NCBI GenBank assembly: GCA_964525725.1
Contig: CAZGJY010000001.1
Location: 1 to 25,559 of the forward strand
DNA length: 25,559 nt
Source: an uncultured Methanosarcinales archaeon
GTDB taxonomy: Archaea > Nanobdellota > Nanobdellia > Woesearchaeales > DATGWN01
Direction of reading: 5' to 3'
Positions 6,882-19,818 of the stretch are shown piece after piece (within the stretch, counting starts at the first letter, position 1; each line of letters begins with the position of its first letter). The position numbers and the translations under genes were made by a program. The notes below the pieces were generated by a model. That model searched no databases. It was not told where the DNA came from and worked only from the letters and a program-made list of their open reading frames with translations.

Positions 6882-6947
6882 GCCAACGATATCTTCGCAA
6901 AAACTTTGCAGATTAATTCGATTACGCAACAATTTGAGCTCATCAAA

Positions 6948-6955
6948 TTTATAAA
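6948..6955 (+). promoter_or_regulatory. TATA-like box of eif2g
   Basis: TTTATAAA ends 22 nt before the ATG at 6978. Confidence 0.6.
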
Positions 6956-6977
6956 GAGCCTCAAATTCGTCTGTTCA

Positions 6978-8549
6978 ATGGCTATAACATCGAAAAAATC
7001 TGCAGAAAAAGTAGAAAAACCAGTCGCCAATGCGAATCCTGCGACTGAAAAAACGTCTGCGCATCCAACGCATCCAAAAAACGATGCATCGCATTCATCT
7101 CAATCATCAGCATTGACTACACCTCTTGCAGTCGAAACGCTCGCTGAAACGAAGAAGCAAAAACCAGCGAAAAAATCGACAGCCAAGAAAGGCGAGGATA
7201 ACGCAGGCAGTCCTTCCACAGGCGGTTCTCATTCGCATCATGCAAATGCAAGCTCAACTTCATCGCATGCTCATCCGGCTCATCACTCTGGTGCGGGAAA
7301 AGACGGAAAAGAAATCACCGATAATCAACCTGTCGTCAACATCGGACTCGTCGGTCACGTCGACCACGGAAAGACGACACTGACACAGGCACTCTCAGGT
7401 AAATGGACGGACACGCACTCTGAAGAAGTCAAGCGAGGAATCACAATCAGACTCGGCTATGCCGATGCAATTTTCTACAAAAATACGCAGAGCGGCAAAT
7501 ATTCGACGAAAGACAAAGACGCTGAGAGCGGCAAACCAAACACACCAGTTCGAAAGGTCTCATTCATCGATGCGCCGGGCCACGAAAGCCTCATGGCAAC
7601 GATGCTTGCCGGTTCGATGATCATGGACGGCGCGCTCCTTCTCGTATCCGCAAACGAAACGTGCCCGCAACCGCAGACAAAAGAACATCTTGCTGCGCTT
7701 GAAATGTGCGACATCAAGAACGTCATCGTCGTCCAGAATAAAATCGACATTGTCGATGAAGCTGCTGCACGAAAAAACTATCAACAGATCAAAGATTTTC
7801 TCAAAGGAACTCCATACGAGAATGTCCCGATCATCCCAGTCTCCGCAGTCCACAATATCAATATCGATTATCTCGTCGAAGCGATCGAGACATATATTCC
7901 GACGCCAGCACGCAATCCCAACGATGTGCCGATGATGCTTGTCGCACGAAGCTTTGACGTCAACAAGCCGGGAACAGAGCCGTCAAAACTCAAAGGCGGA
8001 ATTTTGGGCGGAAGCCTTGTCAAAGGAACGCTCAAGATCGGCGATCAGATCGAGATCCGTCCTGGACGTATTTTCGAACAGAAGAACAAGCAAGTCCACA
8101 AATCGTATCTCACGACGGTCACGTCAATCGTCACGGGTTCTAAAGTCGTGCAATCAGTGCGGCCTGGTGGTTCTATCGCAATCCTCACAACACTCGATCC
8201 GGCGATCGTCAAAGCAGACAAATTGACTGGTTGCGTCGTCGGTCATCCAGACAAATTGCCGCCAGTGTGGGATACACTCAAACTCGATGTCCATCTGCTC
8301 GAGCGAGTCGTCGGTTCCAAAGAAGCGAACGAAATCGTCGAGCCGCTGCGAAAAGCCGAACCACTGATGCTCAATATCAATTCAGCGACGACTGTCGGCA
8401 TCATCCGCGATCTTTCACGAGGAGAGATCATCTGCCCGCTCAAATTGCCGGTCTGCGCTGACATCGGCAGCCGAGTCACAATCTCTCGCCGTGTCGGCAA
8501 TCGTTTCCGATTGATCGGCTATGGAATAATAATGGATTATTCAGAATAG
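6978..8549 (+). CDS. eif2g: Translation initiation factor aIF2 gamma subunit with long N-terminal extension
   Basis: QPVVNIGLVGHVDHGKTT, RGITIRLGYA, DAPGHE, QNKID, SAVH, RSFDVNKPG, GRIF, RFRLIGYG. Start at 6978 supported by TATA spacing. Confidence 0.96.
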   Translation: MAITSKKSAEKVEKPVANANPATEKTSAHPTHPKNDASHSSQSSALTTPLAVETLAETKKQKPAKKSTAKKGEDNAGSPSTGGSHSHHANASSTSSHAHPAHHSGAGKDGKEITDNQPVVNIGLVGHVDHGKTTLTQALSGKWTDTHSEEVKRGITIRLGYADAIFYKNTQSGKYSTKDKDAESGKPNTPVRKVSFIDAPGHESLMATMLAGSMIMDGALLLVSANETCPQPQTKEHLAALEMCDIKNVIVVQNKIDIVDEAAARKNYQQIKDFLKGTPYENVPIIPVSAVHNINIDYLVEAIETYIPTPARNPNDVPMMLVARSFDVNKPGTEPSKLKGGILGGSLVKGTLKIGDQIEIRPGRIFEQKNKQVHKSYLTTVTSIVTGSKVVQSVRPGGSIAILTTLDPAIVKADKLTGCVVGHPDKLPPVWDTLKLDVHLLERVVGSKEANEIVEPLRKAEPLMLNINSATTVGIIRDLSRGEIICPLKLPVCADIGSRVTISRRVGNRFRLIGYGIIMDYSE

Positions 8550-9706: not shown

Positions 9707-10272
9707 GCGTTCTAGATCAAGGATTCCAATCACTGATACAAGGAGATGTATTCGTCATATTGCTCCCATTCCTGCTCATCTTTGCAGTTGTGTTCGGTAT
9801 TTTTACAAAGGTAAAGATTTTCGCTGAAGGCGAGAACAAGAAGTTTGCGACAATCATCGCACTCGTCATGGGTCTTACTGCCGTATTCCAGCACTACGTC
9901 AAAGTCGGTGGTGAGAGCTATGATATCGTCAACATCATCAACGGCGCGTTGCCACAGGTCGCGCTTGTCCTTGTCGCAATCGTGATGCTCTTCCTCATCC
10001 TCGGATTGTTCGGCAAAGTGCCAGCGATCGGCGAGAACAAAGCATCAGTTTGGATCGCAGGCGTTGCGATACTAGCAGTCATCTACATTTTTGGATCATC
10101 TGCAGGTCTTGGCTGGTGGAACTTGCCGTATTGGCTGCAAGACTACCAAATTTGGTCGCTCGTCGTAGTCATCCTCGTCTTTGCGCTCATCATCAGATAT
10201 ATCACTGGTGACGACAAGCCGAAAGATGAAACAAAGACGACGCTTGCAGAATTCTCCAAGCTCTTCAAGTAA
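9703..10272 (+). CDS. Multi-pass membrane protein, paralog 2
   Basis: DVFVILLPFLLIFAVVFGIFTKVKIF...NKKFATIIALVMG. ATGA overlap with paralog 1 and a GGAGG SD. Confidence 0.9.
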   Translation: MSVLDQGFQSLIQGDVFVILLPFLLIFAVVFGIFTKVKIFAEGENKKFATIIALVMGLTAVFQHYVKVGGESYDIVNIINGALPQVALVLVAIVMLFLILGLFGKVPAIGENKASVWIAGVAILAVIYIFGSSAGLGWWNLPYWLQDYQIWSLVVVILVFALIIRYITGDDKPKDETKTTLAEFSKLFK

Positions 10273-16505: not shown

Positions 16506-16599
16506 GCTGAATAGAGGCTTTCTTTGTTATTTTGCAATGTTTTAGCCAATTCTACCTACAAAAGATTAATTAACGAGCGTGTCTTTCTTTTGTTTTCCG

Positions 16600-16848
16600 A
16601 TGGTAAAAAAGCGTTCTCACAAGAAAATGAAGAAATCAGGTTTCGCCCTTAAAAAAACGAAGAAGAAAGCATCTAAAAAAAGCTCACTTGCAAAAAAATC
16701 CCGTAAAAAGGGCGCAGTTGCAAAAAAAGTACGAAGACCGGTTATCAAACGAGTTCCGAAACCGCAAGTCACGTTCATCCCTGAGCCTTGGTCCAAAGTC
16801 GCGAAGTACAAGAAGATCAAGAAAGATGGTTATGGCGGTTATTGGTAA
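16600..16848 (+). CDS. Small, very basic Lys-rich protein (82 aa)
   Basis: 27 Lys and 5 Arg against 2 acidic residues (my count), ending KKDGYGGYW. ATTAATTAA upstream and a T-rich tract after the stop. Confidence 0.75.
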   Translation: MVKKRSHKKMKKSGFALKKTKKKASKKSSLAKKSRKKGAVAKKVRRPVIKRVPKPQVTFIPEPWSKVAKYKKIKKDGYGGYW

Positions 16849-16952: not shown

Positions 16953-18161
16953 ATGACTGATTCGCAAATCTTGGCGCCATTCTTAAGACGTGCTATTGAA
17001 TTTTTGAATAGTCTTAAAATTAAACTGAACGACAAGCCTGATGAAATTACCGAAAAATTAACAATTATCATACAAGTAGATCGGCAAATCACGCAAAGAA
17101 TTTTAGACTTGCGAGCCACGCAAATCCATCCTGAACTCTACAAAGAAATTTATGACTTTCTTGACTCATTCCAGAATCAAATAAGGAGATTATTAGCACG
17201 AAAGGTTGCTGCATCAGACATATTAAGTCTGGCAAAAGACTTAGATCGTTTAATTTCGCACCTTAACCAAATAATTTTCCTTGAGGAAAGAAATCAGGCA
17301 ATCGCTGCAAAGACTCAGTTTAGTAGAGATGTTTGCCATCGATTTGCTCAGCAATTTGATCAAAATGGCTATTATTTTGAAAACATAAATCAAAGAAATG
17401 CATTTTACCAGCTGGTGCAAATCGTTGAAGAGAGTTTACAGTTACCGTTAACCGCAGATCGAGGGCAAGCAAGTCTAAGATTTCGAGCAGTCCTTGATGC
17501 GTACTTTCCTACTGCCGGCATTCCAACAAATTCCCCCTCGTCAAATCATAAGTTTTGGCGTGCAAGTGAAGACAAAGATTATTTTTTGAAAGCGTTAAAG
17601 TCCTTAAAAAATAAAGGATATCTCGATATTTTGCAAGGATTGTTCACCGTTGATCTAGGGTGCGGCACGGATAATGTTGTCGACTACTATGCTCTTCATT
17701 CGTTTATTAAAAATGCAATATACATCGGGGTTGATTTAGACATTAGAAACTTCGTTATGCGATTTATTTGCACACGATACGGGGACCATACAACCGAAGA
17801 CTTTCTGCAAAAGGTGGATATTGTTGGAGATAATTTTGGATTCACGGATCTTAAGTTCAAAAAGTTGGATGGATATGTTCTGGCTGATATGCACAAACTT
17901 CCGCTTCCGGGCGATTGTGTTGGCCTGTTACTTGTCAATTATACTTATACTGATAATTACAAGCGTGACCTAAAAAATCGAGGGCAGTTCGTCGGCGCTA
18001 TAAATAACAACTTGTTGGTTCACGAAGTATTAAGAATATTATGCGAGGGAGGAATTTACCTCACCAATAATGTAGGCAGCAGTATTGGTGGGCTTGGCGT
18101 TTACCAAAAGAAAAATGGAGCATTAGTTGATCTGAGTCATGAGCTAGGTACGATTTACTGA
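16953..18161 (+). CDS. Helical N-terminal domain fused to a class I SAM-dependent methyltransferase domain
   Basis: VDLGCG (motif I), YIGVDLD, LADMHKLPLPGDCV, EVLRILCEGG in the C-terminal half. AT-rich, with TATTTAAA ending 22 nt before the ATG. Confidence 0.8.
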   Translation: MTDSQILAPFLRRAIEFLNSLKIKLNDKPDEITEKLTIIIQVDRQITQRILDLRATQIHPELYKEIYDFLDSFQNQIRRLLARKVAASDILSLAKDLDRLISHLNQIIFLEERNQAIAAKTQFSRDVCHRFAQQFDQNGYYFENINQRNAFYQLVQIVEESLQLPLTADRGQASLRFRAVLDAYFPTAGIPTNSPSSNHKFWRASEDKDYFLKALKSLKNKGYLDILQGLFTVDLGCGTDNVVDYYALHSFIKNAIYIGVDLDIRNFVMRFICTRYGDHTTEDFLQKVDIVGDNFGFTDLKFKKLDGYVLADMHKLPLPGDCVGLLLVNYTYTDNYKRDLKNRGQFVGAINNNLLVHEVLRILCEGGIYLTNNVGSSIGGLGVYQKKNGALVDLSHELGTIY

Positions 18162-18266: not shown

Positions 18267-18731
18267 CTATTTCGTCATTTCTCGTCTTAACAGACTTCCT
18301 TTGTCGTACAAGTTCTTCACGACAACGCCGAACTTTCGCGCTGGATCGCAGACGAGTCCGAAGCCGAGTATCTCATGCTGTTTGTTCTTGACTAAAACAA
18401 GCGTGTCTCGATACGCCGTCGGCTCGATGCCGCTCGCGTCGATGATATCTCTGCCGCACAGATAGAGCCATGCGACTTTGTCATCGACGGTTATCGATTG
18501 CTTCGTTTCTCTGAGAAAGAGATCGATGAACAGCGCCGTCGGGCGGAATTCATTCTTGACGAGCTCGCCCAAGATGATGCCGCCGCCAATCACCGGTTGT
18601 CGTGCGTCGAGCACTGCAGCTTGCGCCGGCGTGAAGAGGAAGAGTTCCTTATTGATCGCCCGCAGGACGTGCGTCGGCGGGACGACAAACGTCACGCCGA
18701 ATTTCTCGCAGAATTGTTCGATTGGTTTCAT
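18267..18731 (-). CDS. Nip7/UPF0113-like PUA-domain ribosome biogenesis protein
   Basis: GGGIILGE, FRPT, AWLYLCGRDI, VLVKNKQHEILGFG, KNLYDKGSLLRRE. Start moved to ATG 18731 because the 44 upstream codons overlap a structured element. Confidence 0.7.
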   Translation of the reverse strand: MKPIEQFCEKFGVTFVVPPTHVLRAINKELFLFTPAQAAVLDARQPVIGGGIILGELVKNEFRPTALFIDLFLRETKQSITVDDKVAWLYLCGRDIIDASGIEPTAYRDTLVLVKNKQHEILGFGLVCDPARKFGVVVKNLYDKGSLLRREMTK

Positions 18732-18766
18732 GGTGGTTATTGTTGTTTTTAGGCGAATATTTTGCT

Positions 18767-18867
18767 GACAGTGATGCGGTAAAAATCTGCTCGTCCCGAG
18801 CAGAGCGAGCGTCGAACCGCCTGCATGAATCGGCGGTTCTCCTGAGAAATACCAAGGCATCACTGTC
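18767..18867. ncRNA. Candidate structured RNA (or ssDNA) element: multibranched fold of unknown class
   Basis: Outer 11-bp stem 18767-18777/18857-18867, 3-nt bulge, 4-bp helix 18778-18781/18850-18853, and hairpins 18786-18793/18797-18804 and 18814-18821/18832-18839 (8 bp each). All pairs are Watson-Crick. Confidence 0.55.
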
Positions 18868-18897
18868 CGTGGTTATCTGTATATGTGATTATTTTAT

Positions 18898-19818
18898 TTA
18901 ATCGACGAGCTCGACTTCGATTCCAAGTCGGCGCTTGATCTTTGAGAAGACGCTGTGCTTCTCTGCTTCAATGTTAAGTCCTTTGATCATAGCTTCTTTT
19001 GCTGCAAGATCAGTCTTGTTCGCTGCGATCTTCTGATCGATGAGCTCAAGCTTGCCGGCAAGGTCTTGGAGATCGAGATCATAGAATGAATTGCGATAGC
19101 GTGTGTTCGGGTTCTTGACGGCAATCTTCTCATGGCGGTATCGGTCGTCGTGCTCGATGTCGCTCATCTTTATCTTGAGACGGTTCGCTTCGAGCTGGAG
19201 CGCTTTGATATTCTCTTGCCGTTTGACGACGACTTCTTTGACGCGGCTGACTTCTTCCATTTTTTTATGGACATTGTAGATGCTGCGTTGGATGGAGAGA
19301 TATGTCTGGTAATCAGAATCTTCGAAAATATCGTTCGCTTGGCGGACATTCACTTTGATGCGCTCAAGGATGTCGTGGCAGTGTTTTGTCTGCACCGGCA
19401 AAAGTTCTGAGAGCGATCGATGTCCGCGAGTGAGGATGTCGTCGCAGACGGACAAATATTGCGGCATCGTCTCGTAGAGATCTTTGATGCCAATCGTGTC
19501 TGTCGGAGCCGATTTGACTGCGTCAGTGATAGAATGCATCGCATTGATGAGCAATTTGCGATGATCGATTGTGAGTTGATGGATGTGGACTTTGGCTTCT
19601 GAGACAATCGCTTGCGAAAGTGTGATGCTTGCAGAGTCGAGCTCTTGTGTGAGGTCTTGGAGCGACTGGAAATTTGTCTGCACTTGTCGCTGCACTGGTT
19701 CGAGGACAGTGCGAAACTGCAGATCGACCCATTTCTCTAATTTATCCATGCGGACAGCTGCGCGCTCATACTTCGGCTGAGAGCGGAACTGATTCGCAAA
19801 ACGATTGAACCATTTCAT
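18898..19818 (-). CDS. Hypothetical long coiled-coil protein
   Basis: 306-aa helical, charged ORF. TTTATAAA (19842-19849) lies 23 nt before its ATG. Confidence 0.85.
   Translation of the reverse strand: MKWFNRFANQFRSQPKYERAAVRMDKLEKWVDLQFRTVLEPVQRQVQTNFQSLQDLTQELDSASITLSQAIVSEAKVHIHQLTIDHRKLLINAMHSITDAVKSAPTDTIGIKDLYETMPQYLSVCDDILTRGHRSLSELLPVQTKHCHDILERIKVNVRQANDIFEDSDYQTYLSIQRSIYNVHKKMEEVSRVKEVVVKRQENIKALQLEANRLKIKMSDIEHDDRYRHEKIAVKNPNTRYRNSFYDLDLQDLAGKLELIDQKIAANKTDLAAKEAMIKGLNIEAEKHSVFSKIKRRLGIEVELVD

Follow-up and report, generated by a model that had tools for sequence, protein, structure and literature searches.

The window, meaning the whole 25,559-nt stretch of DNA of an uncultivated archaeon that was analysed, carries genes for eIF2-gamma, an IF-2B-family protein, TYW2/Trm5 and Nip7, all of which are archaeal markers. 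A histone-fold gene, a further archaeal marker, is found on another contig of the same species (L020), which carries a protein identical to one in the window. Gene content and the small size of the proteins suggest a DPANN-like host.

Two neighbouring genes in this window, both on the minus strand, are separated by a gap of 166 nt (18732-18897), the length that the first-pass annotation gave. The gap runs from the ATG of a Nip7-like gene (18731-18729) to the stop codon of a gene for a 306-aa protein (18898-18900). The Nip7-like assignment made in that annotation is borne out by a PF03657 domain (Table 1). The gap contains a compact folded element, located 35 nt upstream of the nip7 start. On the minus strand, the sequence TTAAATAA (18901-18894) does end 26 nt before the stem of this element.

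Several other genes in the window have unusual features. A 402-aa ORF (16953-18161, plus strand) lies in a stretch of low GC content, 0.38 compared with about 0.45-0.48 around it. It has no Pfam match, and its VDLGCGTDN motif resembles motif I of SAM-methyltransferases. The syntenic contigs of a sister species (L001 and L002) lack this ORF and have a small basic-protein gene directly after nip7, so that it is a strain-specific 1.4-kb insertion adjoining nip7. Between this ORF and the PGK gene lies a gene for an extremely lysine-rich protein of 89 aa (16579-16848, plus strand). It belongs to no Pfam family, contains imperfect 30-nt internal repeats (16663-16722), and is conserved as an 82-89-aa gene in relatives. 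The eIF2-gamma ORF (6906-8549, plus strand) is listed with 547 aa, and its GTPase domain begins only at residue 142. Its N-terminal part coincides with sequence that is very rich in A (AT skew 0.29 at 7001-8000) and is either a long low-complexity extension or a start that was wrongly extended.

Architecture of the element

The element forms a three-way junction, with a closing stem, a short central helix and two hairpins (Table 1).

Table 1. Coordinates of the element, its parts and the neighbouring genes in the window
Feature	Position	Strand	Description
Whole element	18767-18867		101 bases; three-way junction
Closing stem, 5' strand GACAGTGATGC	18767-18777	+	pairs perfectly with 18857-18867 (11 bp)
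Central 4-bp helix, 5' strand GGTA	18778-18781	+	paired with TACC
A-rich junction strand AAAA	18782-18785	+	predicted 5' cut after 18783 if the motif is a relaxed bulge-helix-bulge
Hairpin 1 TCTGCTCG/CGAGCAGA	18786-18804	+	8 bp; basal 4-5 bp conserved; loop UCRUMCY...
Junction 2 GCGAGCGTC	18805-18813	+	invariant; same in window and L001; inside the core shared by paralogs
Hairpin 2 GAACCGCC/GGCGGTTC	18814-18839	+	8-bp stem, 10-nt loop TGCATGAATC; highest conservation within a genome
Junction 3 TCCTGAGAAA	18840-18849	+	UCC..GA kept; remainder purine-rich and variable
Central helix, 3' strand TACC	18850-18853	+	paired with GGTA
3-nt bulge AAG	18854-18856	+	3' cut predicted behind 18855
Closing stem, 3' strand GCATCACTGTC	18857-18867	+	partner of 18767-18777
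Small ORF MQAVRRSLCSGRADFYRITVSKIFA	18750-18826	-	AUG in loop 2, 12 nt after GGAG
Nip7-like gene	18267-18731	-	154 aa; UPF0113 PUA domain PF03657, E 2.9e-9; neighbour, outside the element
306-aa gene	18898-19818	-	function unassigned; no Pfam family

All 31 base pairs of the window copy (copy A) are Watson-Crick pairs, with no G-U pair among them. The helices and the bulge described in the first-pass annotation are all present in the sequence, and minimum-free-energy folding reproduces them on both strands. The folding energy is -45.4 kcal/mol on the plus strand (z -5.26) and -48.0 kcal/mol on the minus strand (z -5.49). On either strand, none of 200 dinucleotide shuffles folded as well.

The same annotation had recognised no RNA family in the element. 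A scan with Rfam 15 agrees: the window has no match at gathering score, and the surroundings of the element, in the window as in L001, have none even at E <= 10. ARAGORN, including its intron mode, predicts no tRNA in the window, in the doubled 72-nt circle that the interior could form, or in the spliced product. With no cloverleaf detected there, a tRNA of the intron-containing, split or permuted kind was rejected. When looked for by eye, the motifs of hammerhead, C/D, H/ACA and K-turn RNAs are absent or not conserved. In the case of a C/D box sRNA, the candidate GUGAUGC lies inside a perfect stem and is found in copy A only, and copies C, H and I have CCGA where junction 3 otherwise reads CUGA. 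The idea that loop 2 pairs as an antisense with other sites in the window was rejected as well, with 3 matches compared with 4.9 expected.

Two alternative pairings within the element can be drawn. One is the switch-type hairpin GCAGGCG-GTTCGA-CGCTCGC proposed earlier. It is present in the window with one mismatch, but it is not conserved, having only 4 of its 7 pairs left in the sister species L001, and was therefore rejected. The other is preferred over hairpin 1 by RNAalifold on the plus strand and pairs UGCUCGU with GCGAGCG (18788-18794 with 18805-18811, including two G.U pairs). This pairing, which may represent an alternative conformer, is incompatible with the base of hairpin 1, and it is that base which shows genuine compensatory change.

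Orthologue, insertion and dispersed family

The Nip7-like protein has a sole close relative, 82% identical, which is encoded on the syntenic contigs L001 and L002. There the same gene pair is found with a 150-nt spacer. The element is identical between the window and L001 at 86 of 102 positions. In both flanking genes only 45-50% of third codon positions are identical, and the spacers outside the element can barely be aligned.

The substitutions within the element are concentrated in hairpin 2, where 10 of the 15 make up five double, compensatory changes. Its stem changes from GAACCGCC/GGCGGTTC in the window to GCGATGGC/GCCATCGC in L001, while the 10-nt loop is retained except for G/A at 18827. 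The closing stem, the 4-bp helix, the bulge and junctions 2 and 3 are the same in both species, save for one base inserted in junction 3. The base of hairpin 1 is CTGC/GCAG in L001 compared with TCTGC/GCAGA in the window, and this hairpin has one G.U pair in L001 that favours the minus strand, at a pair that is not conserved. The element is genuine and conserved, and its structure is under selection.

In relatives further removed, nip7 directly adjoins the 306-aa gene. In L008, whose 306-aa homolog is 66% identical, a UPF0113/nip7 gene starts 1 nt downstream, and in L009 (homolog 43% identical) it overlaps by 4 nt. In L006 (homolog 71% identical) the next gene, which is unannotated, lies 13 nt downstream. 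The spacer of L007 is about 58 nt long and lacks the element. A covariance-model search of these four loci gave no match, so that no conserved linkage of the element to nip7 is seen among L006-L009. Because the two genes normally abut, the spacer and its element are an insertion gained in the lineage of the window and L001. The absence of the element from the relatives' gene junction is also evidence against a conserved nip7 control element.

L009 is contig DATGWN010000051.1 of assembly GCA_035299465.1, which is publicly labelled as an Acidobacteriota bacterium. Its gene order (HAD, 306-aa gene, nip7/UPF0113, small-protein gene, PGK) is common to these archaeal contigs, and the bin label is therefore probably wrong.

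The element is not confined to this locus. Nine rhizosphere metagenome runs, and no RNA run, contain the region, and the contigs of the nine were aligned to the element. Other contigs match only its core (18790-18859, 18803-18850, 18803-18842, 18810-18844 or 18826-18860, at 81-100%) and run into unlike sequence on both sides. In run X1 the depths of these contigs are 6.6, 7.5, 5.9 and 5.7, compared with 6.9 for the contig of the window. Runs X2-X4 agree similarly, so that the depths are equal in four runs, and the version of the sister species gives the same picture. In run X1 at least four further contigs are found at equal depth, and the core is covered about four times as deeply as its flanks. 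Altogether, at least ten further copies are present in unrelated flanks on metagenome contigs of equal depth, and many copies per genome are also a feature of MITEs; their assignment to a genome rests on depth and co-occurrence, and both species occur together in some runs.

The paralogs are known as contig overhangs and alignment summaries rather than as full sequences. Contig overhangs of 30 nt show where copies B, C, D, F, G, H and I are bounded, and the version of the sister species made copies K, M and N readable. Two copies are not intact: E is a fragment of 35 nt from the 3' part, and J is rearranged.

The copies have a near-identical core, made up of junction 2 and hairpin 2. Every copy also has the pattern C-GGNR...NNCC-AAG-G in common, and its CC-AAG-G part is invariant in all 12 copies that can be read on the 3' side. 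The closing stems differ: seven copies have seven versions, all of them complementary. Copies A and G form 11 of 11 pairs, copy B forms 10 with a 2-nt bulge, and copies C, D, F and N form all of the 5-6 pairs that are visible. The central helix likewise changes on both strands, being GGCG/CGCC, GGCA/TGCC, GGAG/CTCC or, with a G.T pair, GGCG/TGCC in paralogs. The A-rich junction strand is 4-5 nt long and begins with A in all copies (AAAA, AACA, AATT, ACTT, AGTT, AACTT). At the base of hairpin 1, copies C, D and F have CCGT/ACGG, CCGC/GCGG and TCTCC/GGAGA, which amounts to double compensatory changes at three positions by our own reading of loose contig ends. Junction 3 reads TCC-GAAAAAA, TCC-GAAAGTAA or TCC-GACATTCA in paralogs.

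The stem of hairpin 2 behaves in another way. Copies found together with the window species (runs X1-X7) all have one and the same stem, and those found with the sister species have a different one in which the changes compensate each other. Run X10 contains the sister species together with paralog M, which is of the L001 type, and no window-type copies. Copy N has a third version of the stem, CGACGC/GCGTCG. The core is thus the same among copies of one genome and compensatorily different between species, and the termini differ among copies and are the same between species at one locus. Judged from these comparisons, the 40-nt core around hairpin 2 appears to undergo concerted evolution inside otherwise diverged paralogs.

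The family was also looked for elsewhere. When JGI metagenomes were searched for the two stem arms of the window at a distance of 65-95 nt, the sole genuine match was the orthologous contig; seven other matches were unrelated palindromes, arrays or coding sequence. The two junction motifs gave only two chance matches in GTDB genomes, both in bacterial signal-peptide regions, and the core pattern gave none in viral contigs. A covariance model (R1), together with a descriptor of the form stem, GGNN ... NNCC-AAG, stem, recovered known copies only in 75 kb. Extending past the window ends by means of the end proteins added about 1.5 kb of new sequence, which contains no copy.

A dispersed family therefore exists, and its four helices are maintained by compensatory change. 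That it is a previously undescribed, narrowly distributed, multi-copy family of structured RNA, not represented in Rfam, is well supported.

Functional strand and competing explanations

In a bulge-helix-bulge (BHB) of the canonical type, the 5' strand goes from the outer helix into the central 4-bp helix uninterrupted, and 3-nt bulges lie 3' of each central-helix strand, as in pre-tRNA (PMC4090602). The 5' strand joins these two helices without a break because the first anticodon bases pair with the intron. The element shows this topology on the plus strand only, antisense to nip7, where the order is stem, GGUA, A-rich strand ... UACC, AAG, stem. On the minus strand it is mirrored. The central helix has exactly 4 bp in the window, L001 and the paralogs, and the AAG bulge faces a continuous 5' strand. 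In place of a second 3-nt bulge followed by an inner helix, the 5' strand has 4-5 unpaired bases (AAAA, AATTA and others), and the strand opposite them is interrupted by the junction, which falls outside the strict definition. Since this 5' “bulge” is a strand of a three-way junction, the motif is at best of the relaxed BHL or HBh' type. Relaxed motifs are cut by types of endonuclease that are found in DPANN lineages (PMC5829648). The BHB-like geometry proposed in the first-pass annotation is accordingly upheld in its topology, its AAG and its covarying 4-bp helix, present in every copy, and only in a relaxed sense at its 5' bulge.

Other evidence also bears on the strand. On the plus strand of paralog G, one G.T pair occurs in the closing stem and another in the central helix, and these would be A.C if the minus strand were folded. 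They are the only two wobble pairs in well-supported helices, so that this assignment of the strand depends on two pairs from one paralog, whose sequence comes from contig overhangs of 30 nt. The plus strand is A-rich where it is unpaired, and T-rich tracts (TTGAC, TTGAT, TTTAT, TTTTTG) follow its 3' stem in several copies. The plus strand has no convincing TATA box about 26 nt upstream in both species; the minus strand has a TTAAAT box 26-34 nt upstream in both. Minus-strand transcription is almost certain, because the element lies on the sense strand of an operon. Taken together, the functional strand is somewhat more probably the plus strand.

A bulge-helix-loop on the plus strand is, tentatively, the best mechanistic fit to these features. 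The explanation put forward here, as a provisional first choice, is that the element is a multiplied cassette which the tRNA-splicing endonuclease would cut on the plus strand, releasing a predicted 72-nt RNA. A relaxed BHB of the BHL or HBh' type would be made up of the closing helix, the AAG bulge, the central helix and the A-rich strand. The endonuclease would cut after 18783 and after 18855, positions that follow from the NN|N rule of canonical BHB motifs. An RNA ligase could then seal the 72-nt interior, consisting of hairpin 1, junction 2, hairpin 2 and junction 3, into a circle. In archaea, circular RNAs are known to arise when a BHB is cut and the ends are ligated (PMC12558985). The ligase could also join the “exon” ends into a hairpin whose 11-bp stem has a 7-nt loop. 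The 5' strand of the central helix and the next base (18778-18782) read G-GNRA in every copy (GGUAA, GGCGA, GGCAA, GGAGA), and once the interior had been cut out as predicted, the remaining 11-bp hairpin would therefore have a GNRA-like loop. The element would then be an ORF-less archaeal-type intron, or a circular-RNA cassette, that multiplied in the genome, and its hairpin-2 core might be kept identical within a genome by gene conversion or by a shared partner. No endonuclease gene lies in the window, and no EndA gene in the other loci analysed.

A more specific form of the cassette explanation is improbable as a whole. It would make the element a free-standing, ORF-less, endonuclease-spliced intron or circular-RNA cassette that multiplies in the intergenic DNA of a DPANN-like archaeon. 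Each copy would have its own 11-bp “exon” hairpin, all copies would keep a species-specific hairpin-2 core, and the closing stem might be a locus-specific address. Such an element would, if this is true, be a mobile BHB located elsewhere than in the genes for tRNA and rRNA.

Alternately, the element may be a selfish, non-autonomous mobile repeat resembling a MITE, a REP/BIME or a SINE, which is possible, if on the whole doubtful. The fold would then serve mobilisation through a single-stranded DNA or RNA intermediate, or would do no more than render the insert harmless or stabilising within the host mRNA, with neither endonuclease processing nor a function in trans. Such a repeat would explain the presence and absence of the element among relatives at one gene junction, the many copies including truncated copy E and rearranged copy J, and a hairpin 2 that is species-specific and common to all copies of a genome. 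Direct repeats also bracket the element together with an A-rich tail, which lies on the minus-strand 3' side. In L001 the repeat is AAGACCAAG, 9 nt long and found at 9864-9872 and 9980-9988; a repeat of that length occurs in 0.8% of shuffles. In the window it is ATAACCAC, 8 nt long and found at 18733-18740 and 18869-18876 (plus strand GTGGTTAT), for which the figure is 10% of shuffles. The repeats are perfect within each species and different between them. Since they are perfect although neutral sites are saturated, a recent insertion is suggested, perhaps as independent events at a similar target. They may be target duplications from separate insertions, or a functional A-ACCA motif; with the A-rich tail, they would fit a DNA- or retro-type insertion of a minus-sense unit. 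However, only the upstream repeat abuts the stem in both species, the downstream one being 26 nt away in the window and 5 nt away in L001. If insertions were separate, the shared closing stem would require two independent insertions of the same subfamily at nearly one place. Terminal inverted repeats of the kind conserved in MITEs were not found, the seven copies having seven closing stems, and variable termini around a conserved interior are the reverse of an element recognised by a transposase. Hairpin 1 and the central helix covary within one genome, which would be unexpected after recent amplification from a master copy. Neither a transposase nor a reverse transcriptase is encoded in the 25 kb window or the syntenic contigs.

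The proposal that the element is a REP-like DNA element is thus right in so far as it is a dispersed, multi-copy repeat, and is contradicted by its variable termini, its four covarying helices and the one-stranded G.T pairs of a paralog. For these reasons, selection appears to act on an RNA or single-stranded fold and not on a duplex DNA site. A DNA operator was rejected because the arms vary and the spacer is conserved.

It is rather unlikely, though less so than a nip7 leader, that the copies are linear trans-acting sRNAs or RNA decoys, with a protein predicted to bind the hairpin-2 loop and junction 2. The closing stem would then do no more than protect the ends, and the AAG bulge would make up, together with the central helix, a site for a protein and not for cleavage. 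Loops and junctions conserved in sequence, stems that covary, several copies per genome, and T-rich tracts after the 3' stem on the plus strand, as for archaeal termination, would all be expected of such a family. Against it, the closing stems are the same between species at a locus despite saturated synonymous sites, which would be needless for protection alone. In addition, no promoter is common to the copies, and the truncated copy E behaves like a repeat.

Two readings concern the minus strand at this locus. The first-pass annotation suggested a 5' leader or sRNA ahead of the gene for the Nip7-like PUA protein, possibly with an autoregulatory role. This would be in keeping with a position just upstream of nip7 on the sense strand of the operon and with the TTAAAT box present in both species. 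Most of what argues against it is distribution: the element is absent upstream of nip7 in L006, L007, L008 and L009, and at least ten other copies lie elsewhere in unrelated flanks. Moreover, the switch hairpin is lost in L001, and the wobbles of paralog G become mismatches on the minus strand. The leader reading is therefore very improbable and was rejected. Control specific to nip7 is rejected because the element is one copy of a dispersed family, inserted between genes that normally abut, and it should not be annotated as a nip7 regulator. Even further from likely is a small protein gene that begins at the AUG in loop 2 (Table 1). This frame is open in both species, but all nucleotide differences between them are non-synonymous and the ends differ (25 compared with 29 aa), so that it probably does not code. 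Furthermore, a six-frame peptide search of the protein database returned nothing at E <= 10.

Comparison with known systems

Regardless of mechanism, the element represents a well-supported structured RNA family that is absent from Rfam and has an unusual evolutionary pattern. It could reveal a new abundant, possibly circular, small RNA in poorly known archaea of the DPANN type.

Autoregulatory mRNA leaders of the ribosomal-protein type resemble the element in being structured and directly upstream of a gene for an RNA-binding protein. Such leaders are single-copy and stay with their gene across relatives. The element, in contrast, is missing from the nip7 genes of relatives and present elsewhere in the genome.

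Dispersed intergenic structured repeats are known from bacteria, for instance REP/BIME, ERIC, Correia, BOX and RUP. Like the element, these are about 100 nt long, intergenic, multi-copy and strongly folded when co-transcribed. They too may be there in one organism and lacking in a close relative, and duplications may flank them. However, they have conserved termini or palindromes and variable middles, whereas the element has variable termini and a fixed core. To our knowledge, compensatory evolution across four helices has been described for none of them.

BHB-flanked precursors of circular RNAs include the processing stems of 16S and 23S rRNA and the intron of tRNA-Trp that carries a C/D box sRNA (PMC12558985). 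In these, as in the element, a long closing helix, a 4-bp helix and a 3-nt bulge enclose a conserved structured RNA. The expected product, which for the element is a prediction, is likewise a circle made by EndA and a ligase. Unlike these precursors, the element is multi-copy with different stems. It has no rRNA, C/D or H/ACA signature, and a D-box-like CUGA is found in some copies only.

The closest known analogue is the group of BHB introns in tRNA genes of Thermoproteales. Near-identical introns of this kind have been transposed among tRNA genes, according to the account of Fujishima et al. 2010 in PMC4090602. As to the spread of endonuclease-dependent introns in archaea, the literature goes no further than to infer “intron transposition” from similar introns in different tRNA genes. 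Copies outside host RNA genes, with filled and empty sites among close relatives, would offer a direct handle on how such introns spread. The element differs from tRNA BHB introns in having no detectable tRNA around it, inside it or after its removal, and its “exon” is merely an 11-bp hairpin in intergenic DNA. Its interior is a 72-nt module of two hairpins, and its 5' site is a junction strand rather than a 3-nt bulge. Like those introns, it has no ORF and was gained at the DNA level, and it combines a splice-type boundary motif with near-identical interiors at several loci and outer helices that are specific to each locus.
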